From IMG/VR virus record IMGVR_UViG_3300029985_000017, positions 1-64,000 of that record: a stretch of 64,000 nt of DNA; one strand, 5' to 3'. The notes beneath the pieces are model-generated. The model saw nothing but the letters and a program-made list of their open reading frames with translations. It made no database searches and was not told the DNA's origin. This document shows, piece after piece, positions 21,868 to 59,070 of the stretch. This stretch comes from a virus. The first letter of the stretch is position 1. Each line of letters starts with the position of its first letter. The position numbers and the translations under genes are program-made.

Positions 21868-21875
21868 TAAAGATT
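21868..21875 (-). promoter_or_regulatory. late promoter motif AATCTTTA
   Basis: Recurrent motif, just before the hairpin leader. Confidence 0.7.
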
Positions 21876-23595
21876 AGTTTGGATTAAAACTCCTTCGTTT
21901 AGGATAAGGAATAGACTTTCCAAAGATAGATTCATAAATTAAATTTATAATTTTCTTATCTATTTTATTTTTACCTAAAATCAGCACATATTTTCCTTTA
22001 GGCGCTTCGGTAACTTGTTCACAATTTTGCATATGAACTTTTCCCTTTTTCGTTAAAATACTATATATTTCTGAAGGAATAGCTTCTTTATTCATATATT
22101 TATTGCTTTTTGTCCATTCTTTTTCCCAAACTATTCCCAATTTTTTGGCATAATGCCTAAAAGTAGAAGTTTTTCTAAAATGTCTGCTATTAACTAATTT
22201 TCCATTTTCTAATCTATATCGCACTTTAGCACCAAAATATCCCCCTAAATAATTAAAATTACAAGCTTGATAGATAGTTCCGATTTCTCCTGCGGCATGA
22301 TCTGAATAACCAAAAAATAGTCTTTTGGTAGTATTTTTAACCATCCATCTACAAGAATACATTAATAATTTAGAACCTAAATTTTTAGGTGTCCAAGAAG
22401 CCGTAGCCCCTCTTGCAATTTGAGCTTCTAATTTAGAGCCTTCTTTTGTATTAGTATATGCATTAGGTTCTGCAATAATAATAACACCACCTAAAAAGTT
22501 TTTAGTCCTAGCTGTAAAAATCCATTTGGGAGAATAACCTATGGTACCGAGCCATTCATATTTTTGTATAAAAATACGGTGTTCTTCGGTAAATTTTTCG
22601 ATTTCAAAATCAAACTCCTCAATAGCAGAGTCTATAGGCATTCCTAGATTAATATCTTCTAATCTTGTATCTAACTTTCTTTTATATTGATGACATTCCC
22701 CAACATTAATATTGCCGTCTACAAAAGTATTTCCTTTACTTTCATTTTGATATTCTGGCAAATATTGTAAATTCCATGGAACGTGGAGTCCACATACGTT
22801 TTCTCCACCGATAGGAATTATGTGATCTACGCAGTTCCCATTAGGTCTATCCCTATATATTTGTTTAATTTCTTCTATTTGTTTAATAGAAAGCCATTGA
22901 GGCATAGCTTGTTTTTTTCTAGCCCTATAATTAGCGGTTCTAGCAACTTTTTCTTTCTTTGTTTTTTGAGCGTACTTCTGTTCAATTTCTTTTCTTTTAG
23001 CAGGATTTTCGTTGGCCCATTTAATGGCTTTTTCTATATATTTATCTTTATTATTTTCATAATGTTTTTCATAGTTATACTGCGTTTTTTCTGGATTGTT
23101 TTCTCTATATTCAGTATTTCTTTCAATAATAACTTCTTTATTTTCTCCATAATAGATTTGGTAGCAGTCTTTGCAAGCCGATACGACCCCCGTAATTCTA
23201 TTGTTATTTTTATGAAAATCATCAATAGATTTAATAAGCTTACATTTTGAACATTCTTTTTTACCATCGACCACTGGTTTATGGTCTTTCCAACGTCTAG
23301 AAATAGCCTTTTTATTTTTTTCTTTGGAAAGTTTAATGCCATTTTCCTGAAAGATTTTTTGTAGGGAAGGTTTTTTAATACCAGTTTGTTCGACAATTTC
23401 CGAAATAATAAGGCCTTGAATTCTTAAAGCAATAGCTAATTCTACTTGTTCATTAGTATATTTCTTTTTTTGTGAAAGCCTTGTCTTTACACACTCATCA
23501 GAACAAATTTTAGTTCCATAGCGTTGTGTTTGAAAGTCTTTATTGCAAACTTCACAGTTTTTATCGTAGATATAAACATATTTTTTCTTGTTCAT
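21874..23595 (-). CDS. HNH endonuclease fused to Mom-family (GNAT-fold) DNA-modification domain
   Basis: Zn fingers, HTH, VDHIIP...CGLHVPWNLQ...N..K.N; C-terminal YSD..AGEIGTIYQACNF.YLG. Confidence 0.8.
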   Translation of the reverse strand: MNKKKYVYIYDKNCEVCNKDFQTQRYGTKICSDECVKTRLSQKKKYTNEQVELAIALRIQGLIISEIVEQTGIKKPSLQKIFQENGIKLSKEKNKKAISRRWKDHKPVVDGKKECSKCKLIKSIDDFHKNNNRITGVVSACKDCYQIYYGENKEVIIERNTEYRENNPEKTQYNYEKHYENNKDKYIEKAIKWANENPAKRKEIEQKYAQKTKKEKVARTANYRARKKQAMPQWLSIKQIEEIKQIYRDRPNGNCVDHIIPIGGENVCGLHVPWNLQYLPEYQNESKGNTFVDGNINVGECHQYKRKLDTRLEDINLGMPIDSAIEEFDFEIEKFTEEHRIFIQKYEWLGTIGYSPKWIFTARTKNFLGGVIIIAEPNAYTNTKEGSKLEAQIARGATASWTPKNLGSKLLMYSCRWMVKNTTKRLFFGYSDHAAGEIGTIYQACNFNYLGGYFGAKVRYRLENGKLVNSRHFRKTSTFRHYAKKLGIVWEKEWTKSNKYMNKEAIPSEIYSILTKKGKVHMQNCEQVTEAPKGKYVLILGKNKIDKKIINLIYESIFGKSIPYPKRRSFNPN

Positions 23596-23706: not shown

Positions 23707-25098
23707 TTAGCTTAATTGGCCAGTAATGTTAGAAATCAATACGTTTTTTCTTGGTTGATATGCAGCGAGTGATAAAAATCTAAAGTGGGCCTCTGGCAAA
23801 CTTAAATCTGAGACGGCCAATTTTAGTTTGCTATAAGGAGCAAGCTGAGCGAACCCAAGGGTGTTACCTTGGATCAAGAACCCAGTCACAGCGCCTGGCG
23901 AGAAGTTGCCAAGATCGGTGAACACTGGATTGCCACTTCCCTGCTTAATTTTACCAATGAACTTAGCATTGTGGTAGTTACCACCAAGCTCAGAACGGTA
24001 AACATTGTAATAAGCAGCTCCAGATGAAGCCGTAATCGTAACGGTAACTTTGTCCCCGTTAGCGGTTACAGTAGCAGTCTGAGGAGCGCTAGGAAGCGAT
24101 TCGCCCAAGATCGAGCAAGCCGTCGCATAGTACACATACGCACCAGCAAACAACATCGATCCAGCAGCGCCTGCATCAGCTACAGCGATAGCTGGAGCAG
24201 AAGGAGTTCCCATACGTGAACGAGCTGGCTGCGTCTTTCCAGACAAGAAACGTGAAGCTTCTAGAGAAACTACAGCGCTTGAAGTCCATTGAGTACGAAG
24301 ATGCGCACCGGTAGCTTCTTGAGCCGATCCAGCGAGCATGATACGTTCTTTAGCGAAAGCGATCTTGTTATAAGCTGACAAGCTGATAGGATCGAGGATA
24401 AGACGATCAGCAGCCCCCATGTTCATGGCAGAACGAACAGAAGAGTCTTCGATGATGGATTGCGTGAGCGTTCCATTAGCCGAAAGAACTACCGTCTGAT
24501 TCGAACCGAATTCAGCGAACATAAGATCTTGCGTATTCAACTGTCCATCAGACTGACGGATCTGTTGATCAACACCAATCATATTAGGCATTTGAGCTAC
24601 GCAGGTAGGGTTACCATCGAAAACACCAGCGTTTGAGAAATCTGATTGACCACGGAATGAGTCAAACTCGATATCCCCAGCAAGCTTCATAGCAGCATCA
24701 GCAGAAGAACGATCTTCAGCTTTAACGCCATCAAAAGCACCAATCATATTGGCAGCAACCGTAACACGACGAATCGTGCTGTAGTAAGCCATAGGAACCA
24801 CCGCACGGATGAAGTTCGAGACATCTTCTTCGCCGACGCCGCCTTCAAACTGGGCAGATCCACCAAAGATCCCGTAATCTAGTTGGCGATTGAATTGATG
24901 AAGTTGAGATTTAACTTCCTTGGAAGGAAGGATTTTCTGCAACTTAATATGACTATCATCAAAAGTGACATTCTGCATCACAGGCGAAAGATCTTCGACC
25001 ATGAGGGCTGCGCCCTGTTCCAAATTACCCGGAGAGGCCATGTAACTGCCTGCTTCAAGGGCTTTCATTAGTGACTGAAGTTGTTCAATCATTTTCAT
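23707..25098 (-). CDS. major capsid protein, SPO1/Twort (Herelleviridae)-like
   Basis: 463 aa; N-arm K-A...G....P.....GAAL..EDL; IE...F.G, FDG; Ig-like insert with YNVYR; strong terminator. Confidence 0.9.
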   Translation of the reverse strand: MKMIEQLQSLMKALEAGSYMASPGNLEQGAALMVEDLSPVMQNVTFDDSHIKLQKILPSKEVKSQLHQFNRQLDYGIFGGSAQFEGGVGEEDVSNFIRAVVPMAYYSTIRRVTVAANMIGAFDGVKAEDRSSADAAMKLAGDIEFDSFRGQSDFSNAGVFDGNPTCVAQMPNMIGVDQQIRQSDGQLNTQDLMFAEFGSNQTVVLSANGTLTQSIIEDSSVRSAMNMGAADRLILDPISLSAYNKIAFAKERIMLAGSAQEATGAHLRTQWTSSAVVSLEASRFLSGKTQPARSRMGTPSAPAIAVADAGAAGSMLFAGAYVYYATACSILGESLPSAPQTATVTANGDKVTVTITASSGAAYYNVYRSELGGNYHNAKFIGKIKQGSGNPVFTDLGNFSPGAVTGFLIQGNTLGFAQLAPYSKLKLAVSDLSLPEAHFRFLSLAAYQPRKNVLISNITGQLS

Positions 25099-25119: not shown

Positions 25120-25974
25120 TTATTTAAGCAGGTGACTAATACTGTTAACGTTGACTTTGCTGCCCAGATAAAATGCGTTAATTGCATCTCTATCAGATTT
25201 TTTAAGACTAGGATCTGCTGTCTTAGCCTTAAGAATTTCATGGATTTCCTTATCAGAAAGCTTCTTTTCTTCAGTGTGCGCTTCCGATTTTTGGATAACG
25301 TCCAATGAATTGATTGCTTTACCTTGAGGCACTGTCTTTTTAGCAAGTGCCGTCAAGAACTCCTTAATTGCTGCTTTTTCAGCTTTTTCAGCTGCTAATT
25401 CAGACTTAAGAAGTTCCATTTCTGTGTTTTCTGATTTTTCCATTTGCATTCCTTCTGCCTTACTAGCTGGTGATTTAGCACCAGGACCGTCCTTAGGCGC
25501 ACAAGCAGACTCTTCGCCACCACTTTTGTGGCCTGCATCTCCCATGTCCTTAGGCTTTTCGGCCTTTTCCATCTCGGCTGGCTTTTCTTCAGATTTACCC
25601 ATACACTTTTGAATACAACCATGATGAGCAGCTAGTTCACCTTTTGACATTGAGCGATACATTTTTTCCATGTGCTCCATGTCTTCGGCATCGTAGTCAT
25701 GGCCTTGATGCTCTTCGCCTTCTTTGCCATGCTCTTCATGTGATTCTTTACCTTCTTCATGATGCTCTTCAGAACTGTGTTCCTTGGCTTCATGTTTAGG
25801 TTCTTCTTTATGTTCAGGCTTTTCTTCGTGCTCTTTATGCTCTTCTTTATGGTCTTTTTCACCATCTTCAGATTTAGCAAGAGAGCTAGATTCTGACTTA
25901 GCAAGCTGAGAGGTAAACGCTTCTTCTACCTGAGCGATAAGATTTGCGACATCTTTTTCGGTATAACGTTGCAT
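25120..25974 (-). CDS. scaffold/core protein
   Basis: Charged His/Glu-rich protein directly upstream of MCP with nine hydrophobic-x-K(S/A/G)(E/D) motifs. Confidence 0.7.
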   Translation of the reverse strand: MQRYTEKDVANLIAQVEEAFTSQLAKSESSSLAKSEDGEKDHKEEHKEHEEKPEHKEEPKHEAKEHSSEEHHEEGKESHEEHGKEGEEHQGHDYDAEDMEHMEKMYRSMSKGELAAHHGCIQKCMGKSEEKPAEMEKAEKPKDMGDAGHKSGGEESACAPKDGPGAKSPASKAEGMQMEKSENTEMELLKSELAAEKAEKAAIKEFLTALAKKTVPQGKAINSLDVIQKSEAHTEEKKLSDKEIHEILKAKTADPSLKKSDRDAINAFYLGSKVNVNSISHLLK

Positions 25975-29245: not shown

Positions 29246-29284
29246 AAGGGCCTCCAACTTTATAGTTGGGGGCCTTTTTCTTTT
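29246..29284 (+). terminator. rho-independent terminator
   Basis: GGCCTCCAACT/AGTTGGGGGCC plus T-run. Confidence 0.85.
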
Positions 29285-30541: not shown

Positions 30542-31393
30542 TTGGCTGATTATACCCAATCTCGAAGTTTTAAAACTGCCACTTATCCGGTCCATGCCAT
30601 CCAAACTTCTGGATTGCTTAGACGTGTGGAACCATTTCTTACTCCGGAATTATTTCATAGTAGATATCTAAAAGGTATTCCAATTATATTTCCTGAGCAA
30701 CGATTCACACCGGACGAACTCAAAGACCGTATCATGATGGCAATGAATGAAACTGAAGCTCAAATCGGAACTACAGTTACGAGAGAAGAATTTGTAGACA
30801 AACTTCCATTTGATTGGTCACTTTATAAAAGTTTTATTCATATTAAACCAAGGCATTCTCCTATTCTAAGTTTAGAAAGCTTGGCTATTGTTGCTTCAAA
30901 TGATGAGATTATTTTTCAAGTCCCAAGTGTTTGGTGTGATATGGCCAACGCATCTATTGGACAGATTAATGTTATACCACTTCTTGCAGCTTTTGGTGCA
31001 ACTAATGCAAGTGGAACTCCTATAACTGCACTTAACCAAGGTGCTGGCATTGCCTTTCTAGCGATTTGGGGTGCCTCTGGCGCTACTACACAAGTACCAA
31101 GTTATTGGCAAGTGACCTATTCAAGTGGACTTTCCAATACAGAAGGACAAGTTCCAGTTATAGTAAACCAACTTATTGGAACTAATGCCGCTATTAATAT
31201 TATTTCTCAAATTGCTCAAATGTTTTTGTATACCTCTCAAGCTCAAAGTCAAGATGGATTATCTCAGTCTTCTTCTCTTCTTGGCCCTCGTTCTTTTCAA
31301 CTTCGTTTAGAAGAACTAATTAAAAATCGTGATGAATTAATAGCTAAAATTAAAGGTATATTTGCCAAGAAATATGTAATTGGGGAGTACTAA
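30542..31393 (+). CDS. head-tail adaptor/neck protein
   Basis: TTG start after AGGAG; V.Y.SG..., SQS.DGLSQS motif typical of myovirus neck proteins. Confidence 0.65.
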   Translation: MADYTQSRSFKTATYPVHAIQTSGLLRRVEPFLTPELFHSRYLKGIPIIFPEQRFTPDELKDRIMMAMNETEAQIGTTVTREEFVDKLPFDWSLYKSFIHIKPRHSPILSLESLAIVASNDEIIFQVPSVWCDMANASIGQINVIPLLAAFGATNASGTPITALNQGAGIAFLAIWGASGATTQVPSYWQVTYSSGLSNTEGQVPVIVNQLIGTNAAINIISQIAQMFLYTSQAQSQDGLSQSSSLLGPRSFQLRLEELIKNRDELIAKIKGIFAKKYVIGEY

Positions 31394-33021
31394 TGTCTCT
31401 TCGTAAAAGTCTTTTAGCAGCTTTAAGATACGATTCTCTTCAGAAGGCCGAAAAAGCTAAATTAGGAGAAGGTGTACACGATATATACAAAGAGCGTGCA
31501 GCTAAAGGTGGAGATATTCTCTGGTATGCCACTGTAAAGGGACAAAAAGAGTTAACACCCGGAATACCCTTACATATGTCTTTAAAAGTATTTGAAGATA
31601 AAAAAGACATGGATTTAGATAAAATTAAAGAAAAAATAAAAAAATTCGATATAAAAACTCCTAAACCAGAAAAATTGAATTTTAAAACAACTATTTTTAC
31701 ATCTGAACGAGATGGCAAAAAATATTATATGTTGTTAATTAGTGGAACAGATAAAACTTATTCTGATTTTTACGAAGCATTTAAACATACTGGAACTGTT
31801 TATAAAAAGTTTATGCCTCATATCACTATTGACAAAGGATTATACGATAAAATTAATAAAGAAGGTTTAAAACCAGAAGAAATTACTTTTAGTGATCTCA
31901 GTATTGAAGCAGGAGCAGGAAACACCATTCATTCTTTTGAAAAATCTGAAGGTTTAAATAAATCTGAAAATGCTTCTATTCCTACAGCGCATATTCCAGT
32001 TCACCATAATGAATTTCACCAGCATTTAGGAAATGCCATCACAAATAACTCTAAAGTTAAAGAGTTTGTCCATCATTATCAACCCCATGAATATTCTAAA
32101 ATGAAAACTTTTTTACATCCTGATAAAAAAAGCGGATTTGCAGTTAAACCAGATGGAGATATAGTTAGTGTATTCAGTACCGAAAAGGGTCGGGGAGATC
32201 AAATTGTACAGCATGCAGTTAAAGCGGGTGGCAATAAATTAGATGCTTTTGATGGCTATTTACCTAAACTGTATGCTAAACATGGATTTAAAGAAACACA
32301 CAGAGAAAAGAATTGGACTCCTGGTGGTCCTGATGTAGTTTATATGAAATTGCACCACAATGATATTAAAAAATCTGAAGAAAGTTCTATTATTAAAAAT
32401 AAATATAATGAAAAATTGAATAAATCAGAAAAACAAATTAATCCCGGTGATTATGGTAATGTAAAACCTCATATTGGTCATAAAGAAATGAAAAATATGG
32501 GTAGAAACTATAAAACTCTAGATTTCCATCCAAAACAAAGCATCCTTCATAGAAAACATTCAGAAGCGGCTAAAACAAAAGGTGATCATAATTTATCAGA
32601 AAAACATGCCAAAATGGCTCAAATGCACGATCATTATGACACAGCCAATCATTTTGGACCACATTCAACAGAACATTATAATGATAGAAGAAATGCTTTA
32701 AAAGAACATACAGATAAAGCCAAAAAACTTCATATAGAATTGAGTAAATCTGAATTTTTTCAGAAATCTGAAGCTCTTTTTTCTATTATCGTCAAAGAAA
32801 CTATCTCTTTAAATCCAGATTTATTTGAGCACAAAAAAGCACTTAGACTTAATGGTGAAGATTTTACACATTATCTTCAAGACAATCCTGATCTTAAAGA
32901 AATAGCTTTAAAAAAGCATGAAGATCGCGCTAAACATCATTTTGGAGATGATCTTATTTTAATCAATGTAGCTTTGAAAAAAGGTATTCAAGAAGCATAT
33001 AAGGCAAAAAGAGGAAAATAA
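31393..33021 (+). CDS. modular internal head protein: 2H phosphoesterase, GNAT and His-rich module
   Basis: HMS (H61) and HIT (H143); IVSVFS..KGRG...LDAFDGYLPKLY..HGF; separated by K-SE motifs. Confidence 0.75.
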   Translation: MSLRKSLLAALRYDSLQKAEKAKLGEGVHDIYKERAAKGGDILWYATVKGQKELTPGIPLHMSLKVFEDKKDMDLDKIKEKIKKFDIKTPKPEKLNFKTTIFTSERDGKKYYMLLISGTDKTYSDFYEAFKHTGTVYKKFMPHITIDKGLYDKINKEGLKPEEITFSDLSIEAGAGNTIHSFEKSEGLNKSENASIPTAHIPVHHNEFHQHLGNAITNNSKVKEFVHHYQPHEYSKMKTFLHPDKKSGFAVKPDGDIVSVFSTEKGRGDQIVQHAVKAGGNKLDAFDGYLPKLYAKHGFKETHREKNWTPGGPDVVYMKLHHNDIKKSEESSIIKNKYNEKLNKSEKQINPGDYGNVKPHIGHKEMKNMGRNYKTLDFHPKQSILHRKHSEAAKTKGDHNLSEKHAKMAQMHDHYDTANHFGPHSTEHYNDRRNALKEHTDKAKKLHIELSKSEFFQKSEALFSIIVKETISLNPDLFEHKKALRLNGEDFTHYLQDNPDLKEIALKKHEDRAKHHFGDDLILINVALKKGIQEAYKAKRGK

Positions 33022-33022
33022 T

Positions 33023-33505
33023 ATGAATTTACAGCCAGACGATATTGATCAAATCGAAGATGCCGGTATCCTTGATGGAAGACCAGTCAAACTCGCAAGA
33101 ACAAAAGGCGGATTCTGGATGGGCATCTGCAATGGTAAAGTTCTATCAGGTGGCTCTCATCCAGCTATTGTAAAACATACAATTTCTAAAATGCATCCAA
33201 ACTTTCAACCTGTAATGTGTAAATCTGAAGCGTTCTCAGATGCCATTGTAGAAAGACATTCTCATTTTCTTTCAGATGACTTGCGCAAATCTGGGCACGA
33301 TATTTATTCTATTCAAAATGCTCAAGATATTGAATTTCAGATCACTAAAAATAATCTAAAAATATCCTCTGTTTTTGGTGTTATTCAAGACGAGTCTTTA
33401 ATTATTAAAGAAATTAACTTTCCGAAACAATTCTCCAGAGCTATGGCTGGAGCAACCACTGAAAAAGCTTTAAGCTGTAACAGTAAGAGTATTAAGGTCA
33501 AATAA
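33023..33505 (+). CDS. probable internal head protein
   Basis: Late operon; MCKSE and LRKSG motifs. Confidence 0.6.
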   Translation: MNLQPDDIDQIEDAGILDGRPVKLARTKGGFWMGICNGKVLSGGSHPAIVKHTISKMHPNFQPVMCKSEAFSDAIVERHSHFLSDDLRKSGHDIYSIQNAQDIEFQITKNNLKISSVFGVIQDESLIIKEINFPKQFSRAMAGATTEKALSCNSKSIKVK

Positions 33506-36180: not shown

Positions 36181-36677
36181 AAACTTGCAAAACCTGTAAA
36201 TTAGAAAAAGAAGATAGTTCTTATAGAATTTCTAAAAAAACAAAGAAACTTTTAAATCCTTGTTTTGACTGTAGAAAAAACATAAAAGAAGAATATAACA
36301 AAACTCATTTAGAAATTAATAATGCGACAAAAGATGCTTGGAAATTAAGAAATATAGATAAAGTAAGAGCCGCGAAAAAAAAATGGAAAGAAGAAAATAT
36401 AGGGAAAGTAAAAGCCGATAGGGCACGTAGAAAATTTCGCATAGAACAGGCAACACCTAAATGGCTTAGTTCTCAACAAATAGAAGCCATGGAATTCTTT
36501 TATTTATGGGCTGATCTTAGAAGTAAAAGCGGTGTAAAATATCATGTAGATCATATTATACCCATAGCAGGAAAAGATGTTTGCGGTCTCAATGTACCGT
36601 GGAATTTAGAAACTCTTAAAGAAGAAGAAAATCTTAAAAAAAGAAATAAATTGCTTTGGTGGAGGACAAATGGATAA
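36177..36677 (+). CDS. HNH homing endonuclease
   Basis: CKTC..CFDC; HVDHIIP...CGLNVPWNL...N..K.N; start after GAGGAG. Confidence 0.9.
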   Translation: MKTCKTCKLEKEDSSYRISKKTKKLLNPCFDCRKNIKEEYNKTHLEINNATKDAWKLRNIDKVRAAKKKWKEENIGKVKADRARRKFRIEQATPKWLSSQQIEAMEFFYLWADLRSKSGVKYHVDHIIPIAGKDVCGLNVPWNLETLKEEENLKKRNKLLWWRTNG

Positions 36678-38376
36678 TTCTAATACGTTCTTCGTATCTT
36701 TCGATGCAGATGACGCTGGCAGAAGAATAGGGCAAGCTATTTTAAATGATGACCCAGATTCTCTTAGGGATGCTTCACAAAAAATAGATCACGGTAACGA
36801 AATCGTAGCACAATGGGCACAAAAATATAATGGCGTACAGTACTCCTCTGGAGGAGATCAGGGTGTATGGTTAGTTCCAGTTGAAGCATTGCAGGAACTA
36901 GAATCCCTACGTAAAGACTATGAATTTGCTACTGGAATGACCATTTCAATAGGTGTTGCTGATACTCTTAGTGGCTCAGGAAGAAGTTTATTAGTCGCTA
37001 AAGTTAAAGGTAAAAACCAAATAGTTTTTTATGGTCCAGAAATAGAAAAAGAAATTCAACAAATTACTGAGAATGTTAGATCTGGACACGGTTCTTCAGA
37101 GGAACAAAAATTAGCAGAATCATATATAGAACCTACTCAGCATTCAGAGGCTTCCGATGATGATGAAGGCGTTGGACATGACCAAGTTCTTCCTACCGGT
37201 GCCGATGCTGCTCAAAATGAGCCTACTTTGTGTGAACCACCAAAAGACGATAATAATCGCGGCTATGATTCTGGATATAAAAATTCCGATGTAGAAGAGC
37301 GTAGGGATTCATATCAAGCTCAAGATCTAACGCCTCCTATTATTAGGAAACCAAACCTTACTCCTAAGCCTCGAGTGGAAGAAAGTTTTTCAACCGATAT
37401 ACCTGAAAGCGATAGAGTTATGAATAATGACCTACCTGATCCAAAAGATATGCCAGCAAAAGACTTAAAACCAGCCCCAAAAGACTATCATGGACAAGCG
37501 GAAGGTGCTCCCCCAGCTCCAGAAGGTTTGGCACAACCTATGCAAGGTAAGCCTAGCGACCTTAAATATAATGGCAATGACGAAAAGGGAATTCAAGAAC
37601 CCGACATGCCTAGGGAAAATGCTACTACGGATGAAGCCGAACAAACCGAAGAAAGTGATATGCTGGGAGATGATAAACATTGCCCTAGCTGCACCTGTGG
37701 CGCTCATGGGGATTCTGCAGAAGACACTTTAGATCAACACGTAGACAATGCTCAAGATTTCGCAGACGCTATTGGCAATGAACAAGAAGAAGATAGTGCT
37801 GAAGACACACTAGATGCTCATGTTAGTAATGCTAGCGAAATGAATGATGACATGGATGAAAACGGTGTTAGTCGTCCTGCTGATTACGATCAAAGAAATG
37901 AAGATATGGGTCTATCAGAAGAAGATGCTGATGACTCTAATTTAAACGACGTATTTAAAGATGGTTTAGATGCTCATGCAGACAGTATTCAACGTGAAAA
38001 AGTTGTTAATATGGTTGGTGAAGCTCTAGAAGCTTTCAAAGGCCAGAAAGCCATATTGGACAAAGCTAAAGCACAAGCCCCAGAACTTTATGATGCTTGT
38101 ATAGCCATGCTAAGAAGTATGATCGAACTTTGCTCGTTAGCTGGTATTGATGAAGGTCAAGCTGAGCAAGAAGTAAACGAAATCGAAGGCCAAAGTAAAG
38201 CTCCCGAAGAAGCTTCTGGTGAAGAAGGCGAAGGGTTTATACCTGAATCTGAAGATAATGGAGCTGAATCTGAAGAAGCCCCTGAATCAGAAGAAGGCGA
38301 ATCATGCCCTACTTGCGGAACACCACATGAAAAAGAAGCAGCTCCAGGAGGGGCTGCTCCATTCCCAAAAAAGTAA
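36670..38376 (+). CDS. mCpol (Cas10 palm/GGDEF-like) domain protein with long acidic region
   Basis: FVSFDADDAGRRI...SGGDQ...TISIGV...L.AK..GKNQI in the first 125 aa. Confidence 0.75.
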   Translation: MDNSNTFFVSFDADDAGRRIGQAILNDDPDSLRDASQKIDHGNEIVAQWAQKYNGVQYSSGGDQGVWLVPVEALQELESLRKDYEFATGMTISIGVADTLSGSGRSLLVAKVKGKNQIVFYGPEIEKEIQQITENVRSGHGSSEEQKLAESYIEPTQHSEASDDDEGVGHDQVLPTGADAAQNEPTLCEPPKDDNNRGYDSGYKNSDVEERRDSYQAQDLTPPIIRKPNLTPKPRVEESFSTDIPESDRVMNNDLPDPKDMPAKDLKPAPKDYHGQAEGAPPAPEGLAQPMQGKPSDLKYNGNDEKGIQEPDMPRENATTDEAEQTEESDMLGDDKHCPSCTCGAHGDSAEDTLDQHVDNAQDFADAIGNEQEEDSAEDTLDAHVSNASEMNDDMDENGVSRPADYDQRNEDMGLSEEDADDSNLNDVFKDGLDAHADSIQREKVVNMVGEALEAFKGQKAILDKAKAQAPELYDACIAMLRSMIELCSLAGIDEGQAEQEVNEIEGQSKAPEEASGEEGEGFIPESEDNGAESEEAPESEEGESCPTCGTPHEKEAAPGGAAPFPKK

Positions 38377-40517: not shown

Positions 40518-40919
40518 ATGCCATATAAATCAGATTCACAGCGCAGATGGGCTCACACCGAAGCAGGTAAAAAAGCTTTAGGCGGTGAGGCCAATGTACA
40601 TGAATGGGATGAGGCCACTAAAGGCAAAAAACTCCCTGAAAAAGTCAAAAAATCTGAAAATCTTACAAAATCCGTGCCAACTCCCCCAAAACTAGGCTCT
40701 ACCCTTGGTTCTACTTTAAGTGCTCCCCAAAATCAACCAAAAGATATTTCTAAGGCCGGTAAGCAAAACGTAACCGCTAAAATATCTAAGCCCAAAAAGC
40801 CAGGTGACGCTTTTGCTCCTCCCAGTGTCTTTTTTGGTAAATCCGAAGATTTTAATGGTCCTAAACACCCAAGTACGCGAAGACTATGGGATTTTATAAC
40901 AAAAAAACATAAAAAGTAA
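40518..40919 (+). CDS. basic internal head protein candidate
   Basis: MPYKS.SQRRW...EWD..T.GKKLPEKV; VKKSE, FGKSE. Confidence 0.65.
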   Translation: MPYKSDSQRRWAHTEAGKKALGGEANVHEWDEATKGKKLPEKVKKSENLTKSVPTPPKLGSTLGSTLSAPQNQPKDISKAGKQNVTAKISKPKKPGDAFAPPSVFFGKSEDFNGPKHPSTRRLWDFITKKHKK

Positions 40920-40987: not shown

Positions 40988-42607
40988 ATGGCAGATGACA
41001 ACAAAAAGCTATTTACACCTCGTGAAGCTGCGCAAGCTGTGTTAGCTAAGACCTATGAGCTATTGTCTAAATCTGAAACTTTAAATAAATACGAGACAGA
41101 AAATCGTAAAGCACCCGGCGTTAAATACGGTAAAATTGAAAAAGATCAAAAACCTATTGAACGTGATTATCCAGAGTATGAAGTAAAGTCTGCGAGTTTT
41201 AAAGACTCTTCAGGAAAACGTCTTGAAAGGCAAGTTTCTCCAAGTGGTAATCCAAAAGAGGAAGCTGAAGGAAATAATAACGTAGACGGCATGGAACCAC
41301 GTTATGAATTTAAAGATAAAGTTAAGGGCGATCTAGCCAAAGAAAATGCCCAGCATATGGTTAAGTCTCAGTCAGGCATGCATACGGTTACATATAAAAT
41401 GCACAAAGCCGAAGATAAAGCTATGCCAAAACCCGATTTGGGTAAAGCTGAAACTGGACATGAAAAAGATGCTGAATTAGTGAATAACAATTATAAAAAA
41501 GAAAGAGCCCCAAACTTAAAAATGCCTAAACATAGAGAGACTAAACCAAAACTATCCCATGAACAAATGATGAATGTTAGCTGGGAGAAGCATAATTTGG
41601 CGGGCAATGTGCATAAAGAACATGCAAAAAAGTATCCAGAAAGTATTCCAGAAGCTAAGGCTATCAATGACAAACATAAAAAAGCTGCAGAGATGCATCA
41701 TGCATATTCTACAGCCAAAGCTAGTTTTCCAGATTACGATTATGAAAAATCTAATAGAGTAAAAAAAGAAGCTACTGAAAAAGCAAAAAAGCTTCATGAG
41801 GATCTTTCATCGATGGAAACTAGTGGCCATAAGGTTGGCCATGCGATAGAACATAAAAAATCAGAATCCAATATTTGCGATCTACATAAATCTGGCGAAC
41901 ATCAAATGCCTAAGCCCCATGCTTCTCATGAAGATATGATGAAGATGCCAAAAAATGCGCATGAAGAAAAAAGAGATTTTCATAATTCCGCTGAATCTAA
42001 AGAAGACAAGCTTCCACAAAATCCAGATAAAGAAGCTGATGCCGAACTTGGTGAAAAAGTAGAGCACGACGTAGAAGATCATTTTAAAGAAAATCAGGAA
42101 GCCGAAGCTAAAGAAGGACATGAACTCATGGCTAAACCAGAGAATAAATCTGAAAGTGAAACTGAAAAGTCCGTTATTCCTCGTTTAGTTCTTTCTGCTA
42201 AACTAAGCAAGTTTATGGAGCATATGCATTCTAAACGTAAAAATGCCGAAGCTCAATCGCCACAAGCCGTTGGCCATGAAGCCACTGACGCTCCGGCTCC
42301 TAGATCTACTGAAGCTGGACAGCCAATTGAAAAACGTGAAGGAGAAAGAGGAATACATCTTCCTCATTCTGAAACGGATATCGCTCCAGGATCTAAATTA
42401 AAGGGCGATATGGGCCAAAGCGGTGTGGGCTCTGATGTTCGCGATATGAAAAGGGATATAAAGCATCTTTCAAATAAAAAAACTAAGGGCGCGGATCGCA
42501 GAGAAACCATAGAACATCATGATATTAATAGAAATAGGGCAATAAATGAGCACAAACAAGTTCTTAGTGATATGAAAGCCATGCCGAAACCAAAGCTTCC
42601 AGGATAA
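40988..42607 (+). CDS. modular His/Lys/Glu-rich internal head protein
   Basis: LSKSE, MHKAE, LGKAE; modules shared with the 31393 protein and the prohead protease. Confidence 0.65.
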   Translation: MADDNKKLFTPREAAQAVLAKTYELLSKSETLNKYETENRKAPGVKYGKIEKDQKPIERDYPEYEVKSASFKDSSGKRLERQVSPSGNPKEEAEGNNNVDGMEPRYEFKDKVKGDLAKENAQHMVKSQSGMHTVTYKMHKAEDKAMPKPDLGKAETGHEKDAELVNNNYKKERAPNLKMPKHRETKPKLSHEQMMNVSWEKHNLAGNVHKEHAKKYPESIPEAKAINDKHKKAAEMHHAYSTAKASFPDYDYEKSNRVKKEATEKAKKLHEDLSSMETSGHKVGHAIEHKKSESNICDLHKSGEHQMPKPHASHEDMMKMPKNAHEEKRDFHNSAESKEDKLPQNPDKEADAELGEKVEHDVEDHFKENQEAEAKEGHELMAKPENKSESETEKSVIPRLVLSAKLSKFMEHMHSKRKNAEAQSPQAVGHEATDAPAPRSTEAGQPIEKREGERGIHLPHSETDIAPGSKLKGDMGQSGVGSDVRDMKRDIKHLSNKKTKGADRRETIEHHDINRNRAINEHKQVLSDMKAMPKPKLPG

Positions 42608-54343: not shown

Positions 54344-56089
54344 TTATTTTTCTTTTTTCTCAATCCAGGAATCTTGACCTTGATCGGTTACCATCTTTTT
54401 TAGAGCTTTTTCAGCTTTTAAAGATTTTCTTAAGCAGATGGTTTGACCAATAACTTGTATCTCAGATTTTGTAAGATTTGGCATAGCTTTTGCCATAAAA
54501 TTTTCAAATTCTTCGCGTTTAGACCATTGTGAGTACTCTTGCTCGGCGCGTTGAAGAAGTTCTGATTTGTCTAGTTTAGGTTTTGGAGCAGATTTAATAC
54601 TCTGCAATCTTTCCTTATGGGCGTCTTTAGCACCTTCCATTGCAATAGTATGGCCAAGTTTATCCCCTTGTTGCTTATACCCAGACGCTCTTTTAATACG
54701 ATTTCCTGCGATTGGATTTAAAGGATCTTCACCCTTACCTAGATCAGGTTTTGGAGCATCTTTAAGTCTTTTAAGATTTTTTTCTGCGATTTGTTTTGCT
54801 CTAACTTTAGACGTTTCTTTTGAACTATCACTAGATTTAGGATTACTTTGATTACGAACATGAGCACCCATATTAGATTGGCCAATTCCACTTTTAATTC
54901 CAGGATTCCAAGCCTTTAATTCTTTTCCAGGAACACCACTAAAGACCGGTTCATTAAGCCTATCAGCTTTTTTCATCTTCTTGTCTAATTCTTCTTTACC
55001 TAAAGCAGCGCCACCCGTAAGTGTTCCAGGGCCAGCCATTCCTGACCCAGCAGACATAGCCTTTGCAAGCTGCGGTCCACCAGGAGCTTTTTTAGGAGCC
55101 ATAGAGACTTTAGGGGCTATAGGACCAAATTTAGGCGGCCCAATAGTGAGGGCAGGAGCCTTCCCTTTTGCAGCTGCCGAAGAGGGATATTTGCTACCAG
55201 GAACTTCAGCTTTGCCCATACCAGCCATCTGTGGAGACGACCTATCGTGCATTTTATGAGACGATATTTGCCCATTACTTACTGCACCCATATAAGCCTT
55301 AGCATGGCTTCCAGCGTCTTGCGGATTTGAGAAAACACCTTTATTACCTTTTAGACCAGCGGGGGCACCATTATGCTTTACATGAAAGGAATCGTCTTCT
55401 TTAGTAACACTAACGGTACCGTGCTCAGGATGGGTAAAGTGCATAGCATTACCCTTTTGTTTACCAGCAGACCATGGAAGGGATTTTTTCATAGGTTCAG
55501 CCTTTTTCAACTCTTCGGATTTTCCGAATAGTTCGATTGTATGAGAAGGTTCAGATTTGAAGATAGAGTCTTCAGCGGATTCTTTGGATTCTGGTCCAGG
55601 AATTAATTCGGCGACACATGTTTTATTGGCCGGGCAATTTGTTATGGTTATTTTTCGTGCAATAGATTTATCAACAATCATACCATTTTTTGAAATTTTA
55701 CTTCCCTCGACGCTGAATCCAACCATAGGATGTTCATTTGGGTGTTCGGCATCGTCCAAAAACAAAGCAGCGCATTCTTTACTAGAATCTTTTTTGTCAT
55801 CAAATAGGCGCCCCATCACATATAAAAATGGAGTTTTACACTTATTCCAATAATATTTATGTCGATCGTTCTCACAATCTTTATCTGAGAATATTTTTTT
55901 ATATTCTAAGATCTTTCCAACTAGTTGATTTGGTTGATCATTTTTATGTTCCCATGTGAATGGGCCGCCTATCAATGAACTACAATCAAGACCGGAGATA
56001 TCGATAATCTCCGAGGAAGTATCTATTGCGGAACTGGAGCCGATTCCATCGATCCAAGAACAAGGTGTTTTTTCTTTTTCTTCAGCCAT
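54344..56089 (-). CDS. prohead protease with long processed C-terminal region
   Basis: IDGI.S...D...E, WEH, GFSVEG, T..P.N; start moved to ATG 56089. Confidence 0.85.
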   Translation of the reverse strand: MAEEKEKTPCSWIDGIGSSSAIDTSSEIIDISGLDCSSLIGGPFTWEHKNDQPNQLVGKILEYKKIFSDKDCENDRHKYYWNKCKTPFLYVMGRLFDDKKDSSKECAALFLDDAEHPNEHPMVGFSVEGSKISKNGMIVDKSIARKITITNCPANKTCVAELIPGPESKESAEDSIFKSEPSHTIELFGKSEELKKAEPMKKSLPWSAGKQKGNAMHFTHPEHGTVSVTKEDDSFHVKHNGAPAGLKGNKGVFSNPQDAGSHAKAYMGAVSNGQISSHKMHDRSSPQMAGMGKAEVPGSKYPSSAAAKGKAPALTIGPPKFGPIAPKVSMAPKKAPGGPQLAKAMSAGSGMAGPGTLTGGAALGKEELDKKMKKADRLNEPVFSGVPGKELKAWNPGIKSGIGQSNMGAHVRNQSNPKSSDSSKETSKVRAKQIAEKNLKRLKDAPKPDLGKGEDPLNPIAGNRIKRASGYKQQGDKLGHTIAMEGAKDAHKERLQSIKSAPKPKLDKSELLQRAEQEYSQWSKREEFENFMAKAMPNLTKSEIQVIGQTICLRKSLKAEKALKKMVTDQGQDSWIEKKEK

Positions 56090-56093
56090 AACA

Positions 56094-56101
56094 TAAAGAT
56101 T
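56094..56101 (-). promoter_or_regulatory. late promoter motif AATCTTTA
   Basis: Recurrent motif. Confidence 0.7.
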
Positions 56102-56120
56102 ATTCTTAGTTTGTTTTAGA

Positions 56121-57239
56121 TTATAAGATACCGATTTCTTTAAGTTTTTTCTTATCCCAAAGTTCTGAATTAGGATGCTCAGATTTAAACCAATCCCATT
56201 TTTCTTGGGCATCTTTTCGCATGTAACCTTTGATTTCTACCCAAATATCTTGATCGGCCAAATAAAGGTCAGGACGATAAGTAGTTAATCTGCCTTTTTC
56301 TGTAGTACAAATGCTGAATGGAACTTCAAAAACCTTAGGCTGCCAATCATAACTTATTTTATTGCTATTCAAATAATCTACAGTTTTGGCTTCGTAAGAA
56401 CCGATACAAACTATTTCCTTATTGGTTTTCCAATGGCATTTAATTTGACAACCATTAGTTGCTTTAGCGTTTTTTAATGCTATCACAGGATCATGCATGA
56501 TGCTAGCTACTCCGTATTTTTTTAAATTCGTATTGGCCTGTTTTTGTCTGACATCTTCGTTTTGTGAAGGATACTCTGTACCAAAGTTCTTAAGAGTAGT
56601 CTCTCTTTTTTTAGCTTTGATTTCTTCGTTACTTGAAATATTTTTAGTCCCATACTTTTTCAAAACTGTCGCATTAGCTTTATTTCTTAAAGCTTTGTTT
56701 TGCATGGGATGTTCTGTTCCATATCTTTCTAAATTTGTTTCTTTAATTTGTTTTTTGACCCTATCGGGATGATTTCTTCCATCCAAAACAGAGCCCACCC
56801 AAGTTTCCCATTCTCCATATTCCTTATCTATAAATTTTGCTTTTTTGCTAGCGCATACATAGGTATTTTCTACAATTTTAATAACATCACCATATAAGTT
56901 ACTAATACGCTTAACAATTTCATTTATAGGAATTTTTCTGTTTGGCACTATTTTTCTGGGTAAAATATCGTATAGTATCCCAAACCTAACAGCGGCTTTA
57001 TAAGCACCACTACTACTTTTTTGAAAATGACTTATTGTTTTGTATTTACGCATTTCTTCCAGAACAGTTTCCTTAGTCCATGGGAAATGAAGGTACCTCA
57101 TGTGGGTACAAATTTCACCCAACCAGCCATTGGCATGAGATATTTGATAAGCACTGCTACTACTTTTTTGAAAAGCCACACGCGTATTGTATTTAAGAGC
57201 TTCTTCTTTACATTTATCAAATGTCCAAATCTGTTTCAT
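56121..57239 (-). CDS. freestanding PD-(D/E)xK homing-type endonuclease
   Basis: WT...A.KY....FQK repeats; four T.L..YG repeats; YRPDLYL...VEIKG. Confidence 0.82.
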   Translation of the reverse strand: MKQIWTFDKCKEEALKYNTRVAFQKSSSSAYQISHANGWLGEICTHMRYLHFPWTKETVLEEMRKYKTISHFQKSSSGAYKAAVRFGILYDILPRKIVPNRKIPINEIVKRISNLYGDVIKIVENTYVCASKKAKFIDKEYGEWETWVGSVLDGRNHPDRVKKQIKETNLERYGTEHPMQNKALRNKANATVLKKYGTKNISSNEEIKAKKRETTLKNFGTEYPSQNEDVRQKQANTNLKKYGVASIMHDPVIALKNAKATNGCQIKCHWKTNKEIVCIGSYEAKTVDYLNSNKISYDWQPKVFEVPFSICTTEKGRLTTYRPDLYLADQDIWVEIKGYMRKDAQEKWDWFKSEHPNSELWDKKKLKEIGIL

Positions 57240-57303: not shown

Positions 57304-59070
57304 TCAGAATCTTTCATTGGCTTCATTCACATTAGACATAGGATCATTAGCGTTTTTCATAAATTCATTGTCTGCTCTAGCTTCTGACCTTTCAAATTGA
57401 TCATCCCTAGGAGCTACTACAATGCCTCCCAAAGTACCTAAAACACCAGCAATACTTACGGAATTAGTTAAACTCTCTTCTACTGCTTTTGTAGAGTCGA
57501 ATAGCCCAAGTTCCATGGCATCCCCATAGACTTCATTTTCTACATCGTAAACCAAATCTGGATTACCTATTAGAGTTGTAACCACCTCTTTGATTTCATC
57601 GACATTGTGACCAGAATTATCTAGCAGAATTCTAGGTAGACTCAACAAAGCTTCAGTTAGCACAATTCTTGCTGGATCATCCTCTGAGAGTTTTTCAGCA
57701 AGTTTAATCGCCATATCAATGGCAATCCTAGTTCCACCAGGTAAACAGCCATGCTTAATAGCCGAACGCATAGCCATAGTCGCGTCTTCAATTCTATCAT
57801 GCTTTTCTTTAAGATCTGCACCGGAACCTGCATAAACTGTAAGTTTAGCAATACCACATGTCAATAGAGCAACACGTTCTTGCAACCAGATAGTTTCAGC
57901 TTTAGATTCTGAATTTTTAATCATTTTTTTAAGATCATCAGCACGAACTTCAACATTTAGTGCGTCTGGTTCTCCAACAACAGTAGATCTATACCTATGA
58001 CTTTCAAAATAATCCATACCATGGCCTAGATCATTAATATTAGCACCAGAGAGTTGATCTTTTAATCCGAATACCTTAGCCCCTGTAAAAGCGGCCAAGT
58101 CATATAGGAAAGCTTGTTGTGAATTGGTGAATTGCCTCATAGGAGTTTTAAGAGGCATAATATTGATAGTTGAACTGTTAACAAAATTAAGAACTAGGGT
58201 AGTTAAAACCTGATCTGAAAATCCATGCGCCACAATAATTGTGTTCTTAAAATTTTCATCTCCGCTGGCATATCTTTCGCCAACCTCATTCAAAATAGGA
58301 GTGATTTGAATCAAATCAGTAATCATACCATCAAACAAAATGAACAGTGGTTTTTCAAGATAGGTTCTTTGGTTACCGATATCGTTAATAAAAACATTAC
58401 TGAATTTCCCAAGGTCTTCGTGCCCACTATAGATAGGAAGGCCGTCTACACGATCAATTTTATAACCTTCTTCTCCCGGAAGTTCTTTAATAGTAACGTG
58501 GCTAGAATCACCAAAACCTACAAGTTCAAAACACTCATAAACTTTATTAGCCATTTCTTCATCGCCATTGGCACTAATCTTGCCAACTTTTTTAAGAAGC
58601 TCTTGATTGTCGGCGGTGATTTGAATTGCTCTTTCACGAATATACGGCACTAGGATTTCACTAACTGCTTTTTTAATTTTACGAACAGCTTTTTGAGGAG
58701 AATATTTAGGATTTTCTTTACAATACTCGAAAAGATTTTTAATAAGTTGATGGGCTAGAATTGTGGTTGTAGTCGTTCCATCCCCAGCGCCTTCGCCTAC
58801 GCGCTGAGCGCAATCCCTAGCTGTCTCAATGATAACGTGGTCAATTGAATCAATTGCACCTAGATTGGAGAATACAGAGGTACCATCTTTAGAAACCCTA
58901 TTAGACACTCCAGGAAGATCACTTTCAATCAAAACCGTTTTTCCACCGGGACCGAGAGTGCCTCCAACGATGTCGGCTATCCTACTGGTAATATTAAGAA
59001 CTTTCCTTTTGATAAGTTCACGATCCGAGATAAAGATTTTAGGGGTTGTCTTAGCTTTTCTGTGGGACAT
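57304..59070 (-). CDS. groEL: phage chaperonin, GroEL-like
   Basis: TLGPGG, SKDG, GDGTTT, ISANGD, EK.DRIEDA, G.LPG. Confidence 0.95.
   Translation of the reverse strand: MSHRKAKTTPKIFISDRELIKRKVLNITSRIADIVGGTLGPGGKTVLIESDLPGVSNRVSKDGTSVFSNLGAIDSIDHVIIETARDCAQRVGEGAGDGTTTTTILAHQLIKNLFEYCKENPKYSPQKAVRKIKKAVSEILVPYIRERAIQITADNQELLKKVGKISANGDEEMANKVYECFELVGFGDSSHVTIKELPGEEGYKIDRVDGLPIYSGHEDLGKFSNVFINDIGNQRTYLEKPLFILFDGMITDLIQITPILNEVGERYASGDENFKNTIIVAHGFSDQVLTTLVLNFVNSSTINIMPLKTPMRQFTNSQQAFLYDLAAFTGAKVFGLKDQLSGANINDLGHGMDYFESHRYRSTVVGEPDALNVEVRADDLKKMIKNSESKAETIWLQERVALLTCGIAKLTVYAGSGADLKEKHDRIEDATMAMRSAIKHGCLPGGTRIAIDMAIKLAEKLSEDDPARIVLTEALLSLPRILLDNSGHNVDEIKEVVTTLIGNPDLVYDVENEVYGDAMELGLFDSTKAVEESLTNSVSIAGVLGTLGGIVVAPRDDQFERSEARADNEFMKNANDPMSNVNEANERF

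Follow-up and report, generated by a model that had tools for sequence, protein, structure and literature searches.

Polyvalent proteins, described in phages and conjugative elements, combine several effector domains in a single chain, are encoded beside packaging and structural genes, and were predicted to be carried in the capsid and delivered along with the DNA. Among their domains are 2H phosphoesterases, for which degradation of defense nucleotides or RNase activity has been suggested, and GNATs, which frequently accompany an ART domain (Iyer, Burroughs, Anand, de Souza and Aravind, 2017; PMC5512222). A second group of described systems concerns prohead proteases: in phage SPN3US, head and ejection proteins are cut at a protease motif and the protease also cleaves itself (PMC10052503), and related protease families usually cut after Glu. 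Here we analyze a locus that shares features with both, in a window that covers positions 1 to 64,000 of an IMG/VR virus record of 163,229 bp (IMGVR_UViG_3300029985_000017; CheckV completeness 99%). The gene in question is a called open reading frame (ORF) at 31393..33021 (+ strand, stop codon included in the coordinates) encoding a protein of 542 residues, hereafter P0001. On balance, and with modest confidence in the full chain of events, we read P0001 as a virion-associated, head-packaged, protease-processed “polyvalent” effector of a myovirus resembling Myxococcus phage Mx1.

A prediction made earlier from the sequence alone (hereafter the original prediction) had described this gene as a packaged cargo polyprotein released by the prohead protease; it missed that P0001 fits the published polyvalent class (PMC5512222). 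The likeness lies in having at least two conflict-type domains in one chain (2H and GNAT, together with an SLT-like remnant), in being encoded between the capsid and sheath genes, with portal, large terminase, sheath and tube genes all within the same window, and in a syntenic Mx1 counterpart that carries the Pfam domain ART-PolyVal. The differences are that processing of polyvalent proteins is explained mainly by embedded peptidase domains (PMC5512222), of which P0001 has none, whereas its modules are separated by a short motif common to the scaffold and the prohead protease and hop between several neighboring genes. P0001 is also small and without a MuF or portal fusion.

The comparison with the T4 internal head proteins (IP) and Alt, described in PMC5512222 and PMC9026906, and with phiKZ and SPN3US is similarly two-sided. 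The shared features are packaging in the head, a short protease motif that recurs in these proteins as well as in the scaffold or core and in the protease, and leaders that end in a site; Alt of T4 is moreover an injected enzyme, an ADP-ribosyltransferase. In those phages, however, what cleavage takes off is a propeptide, mostly at the N-terminus, and P1 is Glu, whereas the sites of P0001 would separate several folded enzymes in the manner of a viral polyprotein, and in the P0001 motif the second residue ahead of the Glu is always Lys. P0001 differs from the known systems in that entire folded enzymes are bounded by the sites and in that its modules change places from gene to gene.

Modular architecture of P0001

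The motif, hydrophobic-x-K-[S/A]-E, occurs seven times in P0001, and every copy listed in the original prediction is present where it was placed: LQKAE at residues 16–20, FEKSE at 182–186, LNKSE at 188–192, IKKSE at 325–329, LNKSE at 342–346, LSKSE at 450–454 and FQKSE at 456–460. Within-protein shuffles give an expectation of 0.2 copies, and none of 5000 shuffles reaches seven. All seven copies lie outside the folded modules (2H, ~38–181; GNAT, ~200–321; C-terminal module, 461–542), which bears out the claim that the motifs fall at domain boundaries.

The chain opens with an N-terminal leader (residues 1–20, 31393..31452, all features of P0001 being on the + strand), in which a predicted helix at 3–17 ends in LQKAE and which looks like a capsid-targeting propeptide. 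The 2H phosphoesterase module follows (residues 21–181, 31453..31935), then a linker with the doublet FEKSE and LNKSE (182–192, 31936..31968), whose motif is conserved at the same column in homologues. Residues 185–195, spanning the second motif of this doublet and the end of the first, have a predicted local distance difference test score (pLDDT) below 50. The GNAT acetyltransferase module (193–324, 31969..32364) is succeeded by a linker carrying IKKSE and LNKSE (32365..32430), a His-rich, mostly helical spacer (347–449, 32431..32739) with its first ~30 residues disordered, a linker with the doublet LSKSE and FQKSE (450–460, 32740..32772), and a conserved helical C-terminal module (461–542, 32773..33018; pLDDT 89–97). 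The part from residue 193 to 542 was modeled with alignment A4 at an overall pLDDT of 83. No counterpart of the His-rich spacer was found among orthologues; it shows a weak likeness to part of ORF 40988..42607 (E 0.059 in pairwise BLAST), which is not significant genome-wide. That ORF (+ strand) encodes a 539-residue His/Lys-rich protein with a leader ending in LSKSE and two more motifs.

The 2H fold and both of its HxS/T motifs, HMS at residues 61–63 (31573–31581) and HIT at 143–145 (31819–31827), are confirmed by alignment, model and fold searches, as the original prediction had them. Across 28 homologues H61 and H143 never vary, and conservation of S63 and T145 is 90% or higher. Residues 1–195 were modeled with 27 homologues (pLDDT 89), and the top 20 VIA matches to this model are all 2H proteins with Z from 5.8 to 8.7, followed by matches at 3.9 and then at 2.9 or less. 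The leading Foldseek and VIA matches are rotavirus VP3 (Foldseek probability 1.00), YjcG, CPDase, LigT, Usb1 and AKAP18, and further ones are the penguinpox phosphodiesterase acting on cyclic GMP-AMP (cGAMP), the phosphodiesterase of phage BCSR5 and Acb1. In the ESM Atlas the module reaches template-modeling scores of 0.50–0.56 to LigT/2_5_RNA_ligase2 clusters, and among its best matches in BFVD are large proteins of actinophages that bear the names “structural protein” and “capsid morphogenesis protein.” P0001 has no match to the Pfam 2H models PF13563 and PF02834, which appear weakly in 4 of the 28 homologues (best E 0.019) and in one of them, respectively. Since sequence-profile searches of the PDB, based on the alignments of the 2H, GNAT and SLT-like modules, yielded either nothing or spurious repeat-protein matches (designer PPR, TAL effector), we relied on the folds.

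For the GNAT module, the claimed KGRG and LDAFDGYLPKLYAKHGF are both present and the fold is confirmed for residues ~200–321. The top 50 Foldseek matches to the model of residues 193–542 are all GNATs at probability 1.00, and VIA matches, including RimI and Naa10/Ard1, reach Z 12.8 with a root-mean-square deviation (rmsd) of 2.6 Å over 125 residues. The acetyl-CoA loop reads EKGRGD after strand 4, a motif-B-like Y..HGF lies in LYAKHGF, and G279, Y294 and G298 are invariant in 33 GNAT homologues (alignment A2). The module matches phrog_2563 (E 2e-33) and no curated Pfam model above threshold; among the 33 homologues, Acetyltransf_7 is found in four (best E 0.002) and Acetyltransf_10 in two. Further matches are stand-alone “acetyltransferase” genes in phages of Streptomyces and in phiKMV-like phages. 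We considered and rejected a connection with Rac, an acetyltransferase of LUZ19 by which cleavage of the RNA polymerase alpha subunit is triggered: the phiKMV-like match is gp13 of TbilisiM32, which adjoins the primase, whereas Rac is gene 28.

Distribution of the motif

Over the whole genome the motif occurs 35 times compared with 10.3 ± 3.2 expected, and permuted control motifs are at expectation (15, 12 and 6 vs. ~10). In the replication half of the genome it is no more frequent than chance. A few proteins account for the excess, namely P0001 and a scaffold-like protein with seven copies each, the orthologue of an annotated prohead protease with six and, in the virion gene cluster, ORF 40988 with three and ORF 40518 with two, and four proteins have an N-terminal leader of 20–30 residues ending in the motif.

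The scaffold-like protein is acidic and His-rich, and its gene (25120..25974, − strand) lies immediately upstream of that of the major capsid protein (23707..25098, − strand; phrog_752, E 6e-42). Its orthologues in the related contigs L001 and L002 and in Mx1 retain the motif, which is also present in the Mx1 portal. The capsid protein has 51.5% identity to its Mx1 counterpart and about 27% to capsid proteins of the SPO1 group, and its N-terminus has a conserved LMKALEAG (LRKAMEAG in Mx1) that fits hydrophobic-x-K|[A/S] in register. The K|S bond and the bond after Glu are both candidates for the scissile bond.

The probable prohead protease is encoded at 54344..56212 (− strand). Its residues 38–204 are orthologous to the N-terminus of the Mx1 protein annotated “putative prohead protease” (36% identity, E 2e-29), and its language-model neighbors carry Peptidase_S78, S77 and S80. 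Three of its motifs form a cluster at residues 217–239, directly after the protease domain, and three more lie downstream. Because the motif is common to the scaffold-like protein and to this orthologue of a prohead protease, processing by the protease in the head is the best reading of it. The recurrence of the motif in Mx1, although Mx1 is GC-rich, indicates that it is kept at the protein level.

Exchange of modules among relatives and in Mx1

Whether orthologues swap domains between conserved K-SE linkers was a check proposed in the original prediction, and they do: modules are rearranged at the motifs, and module junctions carry the motif in close relatives. The commonest form (~246 residues, more than 50 relatives) has the 2H module, then the motif, then the C-terminal module, and longer relatives insert a hydrophobic segment and a full SLT-like domain. 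GNAT stands ahead of 2H in P0002, P0015 and P0017. In P0016, P0018 and P0037, a minority at the P0001 slot, the orthologue of the next gene downstream (33023..33505, + strand) follows 2H in one fused chain, in place of the C-terminal module. In P0003, the N-terminal ~55 residues of the 133-residue ORF 40518–40919 (+ strand) stand as an insert behind the 2H module and ahead of the SLT-like one. Fusions to a Zeta toxin or an ADP-ribosyltransferase domain are seen in GNAT homologues that are more distant.

In a relative of 156 kb (L001 10001–11950, P0030) the GNAT module sits at the N-terminus of an mCpol protein. In the window, mCpol is a separate gene of the virion cluster (36670..38376, + strand, 568 residues), with an N-terminal mCpol domain (minimal polymerase of clustered regularly interspaced short palindromic repeats, CRISPR; PF18182, E 2.7e-8) followed by ~450 acidic residues. 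The Mx1 head module holds a GGDEF-type “nucleotide cyclase” (L005 17173–17904) in place of mCpol.

The gene just upstream of P0001 (30542..31393, + strand) belongs to the virion cluster and is the orthologue of a 281-residue Mx1 protein that precedes the Mx1 polyvalent protein. The latter, WNM70333.1, is syntenic with P0001, has 1479 residues with GNAT, ART-PolyVal (PF18760) and NUDIX domains and carries the motif at residues 129–133, 606–610 and 1251–1255, with copies just before the first two domains. The next Mx1 protein has 619 residues, is PI3/PI4-kinase/HipA-like and has a motif at residue 220 (the two proteins cover L005 24404–30710).

Genomic context

P0001 lies in a + strand late operon with the capsid cluster on one side and the tail sheath on the other. 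Its ATG shares nucleotides with the stop codon of the preceding gene (TAATG), GGGGAG lies upstream, and the two genes are translationally coupled; the downstream gene starts 2 nucleotides past its stop. A strong terminator at 29246–29277 lies upstream of this stretch; from there to the tail sheath gene, promoter-like sites number 45 vs. 44.3 in shuffled sequence, and weaker terminator-like hairpins number 17 vs. 8.3 expected. The coupled start, the 2-nucleotide gap and the shuffled level of promoter-like sites together place P0001 in the late structural operon. The neighbors have weak matches to virion proteins in PHROG. On the placement among neck genes in the original prediction, what bears is a faint tail-terminator match, in an orthologue of one gene downstream of P0001.

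The downstream gene at 33023..33505 encodes 160 residues with a conserved internal M/L-x-KSE (here MCKSE), and no family match was found for its product. No sequence relatives in the PDB were found for ORFs 30542 and 33688, and searches of GenBank phages by megablast (with the region) and tblastn (with the 2H part) gave no match. Directly downstream of the capsid gene, a 573-residue protein (21874–23595, − strand) has PHROG matches of endonuclease VII/HNH type and to Mom-like DNA modification, and its orthologue in the related contig L002 has the Pfam domain Mom. A gene resembling a homing endonuclease (56121–57239, − strand) overlaps the start of the protease gene and adjoins a phage GroEL-type chaperonin (57304–59070, − strand; Cpn60_TCP1, phrog_5725, E 1e-76).

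Proposed pathway and the points against it

The sequence of events that we propose is as follows. P0001 would be made late, its translation coupled to that of the structural genes, and the short N-terminal leader would help it load into the prohead. There the prohead serine protease would cut it at hydrophobic-x-K-[S/A]-E, the same sites as in the scaffold and in the tail of the protease itself, to leave free in the head a 2H enzyme of ~19 kDa, a GNAT of ~15 kDa, a His-rich helical piece and a transglycosylase-like remnant of ~80 residues. These pieces would exit with the DNA and be active ahead of all phage gene expression, the 2H enzyme hydrolyzing a nucleotide or RNA phosphodiester, whether a defense second messenger or 2'-5' or 2',3'-cyclic ends, and the GNAT acetylating a host target. 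We infer the packaging, the cleavage and the bond cut, the ejection and both substrates from the architecture and context given above; head packaging, protease cutting and co-injection seem to us well supported among these steps.

Several observations weigh against this pathway. We found no proteomic or biochemical evidence for it in this phage or in Mx1. The assignment of the protease comes from a weak PHROG match (E 1.6e-4), the language-model neighbors and orthology to an Mx1 annotation, and the candidate has no supporting match in Pfam or among PDB sequences. Three of the four site clusters are modeled as helix, not loop, many orthologues have no N-terminal leader and start exactly after the LQKAE site, and the mCpol protein near P0001 has no strict copy of the motif. 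It is also the case that the regions before the sites in T4, phiKZ and SPN3US are usually discarded propeptides, not enzymes (PMC10052503). Finally, the Lys-Ser-Glu codons of the motif are biased to AAATCTGAA, which is found in 13 of 30 copies where codon usage would predict it in about 4 of 24 KSE copies. This means that some copies may share recent ancestry, and the bias may come from cassette copying or from selection at the RNA or DNA level.

Alternative explanations

A more specific account makes P0001 an anti-CBASS nuclease of the Acb1 type (CBASS, cyclic oligonucleotide-based anti-phage signaling system), the released 2H enzyme degrading signals of the cGAMP or cyclic triadenylate (cA3) type on entry. 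We regard this as unlikely, although it is the alternative that survives best. The fold with its intact catalytic dyad is what such an enzyme requires, Acb1 and the poxvirus and Burkholderia phage phosphodiesterases are among the structural matches, and degradation of nucleotide signals has been proposed for such 2H domains (Iyer et al., PMC5512222). No RNA ligase of PF09414 is found in the genome to suggest RNA repair, and its absence may slightly disfavor a repair role for the 2H module.

Acb1 (T4 gp57B family, PF23474; PDB 7t26/7t27) is likewise a 2H phosphoesterase encoded by a phage, comparable in size and with two HxT/S motifs. The description of P0001 as Acb1-like in the original prediction is not supported, since PF23474 has no match in P0001 (E ≤ 10), in the 28 homologues or in the six-frame genome (E ≤ 1), and the structural likeness is that of 2H proteins in general. 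The solved Acb1 structures have no sequence match to the 2H family profile at E ≤ 10. Acb1 (7t27) matches the model at Z 6.7, with an rmsd of 4.0 Å over 116 residues, as one of ~20 effectively tied 2H structures of which the best has Z 8.7, and Acb1 models in BFVD come at rank 20 and below. The best structural matches, the C-terminal domain of rotavirus VP3 (Z 8.4–8.7), YjcG (8.7) and CPDase (8.6), and those of LigT type (this group together at Z 8.0–8.7), are thus above Acb1, all effectively tied. Identity of P0001 to VP3, coronavirus ns2, LigT, YjcG and CPDase is 9–17%, with Z values within ~2 units of many 2H proteins. Since the Z values are nearly tied and identity is this low, the substrate of the 2H module cannot be inferred from these matches. 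Acb1 is a free-standing protein, and we know of no report of it as virion cargo.

A second alternative, which we consider improbable, is that P0001 serves in virion structure or in entry, at the neck, in the tail lumen or in the ejection channel, with the SLT-like module as its core (for cell-wall passage or virion anchoring), the enzymes as passengers and the motifs as flexible linkers that are partly or never cut. SLT domains are known from proteins that are ejected or belong to the virion, T7 gp16 being an example. The gene does lie among virion-cluster genes upstream of the sheath, with the one faint tail-terminator match noted above, and the C-terminal module is common to most orthologues at its slot. 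That this module appears to be an SLT-like remnant was another point missed by the original prediction. The 82 residues at 461–542 match the back part of a longer SLT-like transglycosylase domain of orthologues, which opens with QVESSGGK and matches PF01464 in 12 of 20 (best E 6.7e-6). P0001 aligns to this domain only from residue 461 and so retains its C-terminal ~80 residues without the catalytic Glu-Ser (ESSGG) segment, as is likewise true of the more than 50 relatives of about 246 residues. Many orthologues have the full domain with ESSGG after a hydrophobic segment. This segment, Ala/Gly-rich, of ~20 residues, possibly membrane-spanning and absent from P0001, lies between the 2H and SLT-like domains in most long orthologues (P0004–P0026, e.g., L002 10001–11131). 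Because ESSGG is missing in P0001 and in the more than 50 short relatives, and tblastn of the genome found no other copy of it, lytic activity cannot be what is conserved in the module here. A passive linker would also hardly account for the recurrence of the motif in the scaffold and the tail of the protease.

The last alternative, a late multi-enzyme protein of the cytoplasm that never enters the virion (e.g., for RNA-end healing and acetylation) and whose motif is a lineage-specific linker spread by cassette duplication, can draw on the indirect nature of the evidence for packaging, on the hint of copying in the codon bias and on the solo, non-structural GNAT homologues of Streptomyces and phiKMV-like phages, but we judge it very improbable given the translational coupling of P0001 within the structural operon, the confinement of the motif to head-assembly proteins with its chance level in the replication half, its conservation in protein between genomes of 37% GC and GC-rich ones, and the ART-PolyVal domain of the syntenic Mx1 protein.

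Implications

Beyond the reading of P0001 as a packaged and processed polyvalent effector, there is a broader possibility that we advance tentatively and with some doubt, namely that Mx1-like myoviruses run a plug-and-play head cargo. Modules flanked by the motif (2H, GNAT, mCpol, ART, NUDIX, kinase, Zeta-like and others) would be insertable in several internal head proteins, freed by the protease and co-injected as an immediate counter-defense that needs no transcription, with the 2H enzyme erasing cyclic-nucleotide alarms. If this is true, the position of a module would be immaterial because every module is cut free, which would explain the free swapping of effectors between virion genes.

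P0001 would, if so, also be a concrete candidate for a pre-packaged nuclease directed against nucleotide-signaling defenses, an idea proposed in 2017 of which we know of no test. The idea is directly testable because Mx1 is a cultivable relative and grows on Myxococcus xanthus, whose reported defenses include CBASS and type III CRISPR (PMC11506125). The motif itself provides a simple sequence rule for predicting the packaged effector set of the whole phage clade, and, should the proposed processing be true, the head maturation protease would serve a DNA phage as polyprotein proteases serve RNA viruses.

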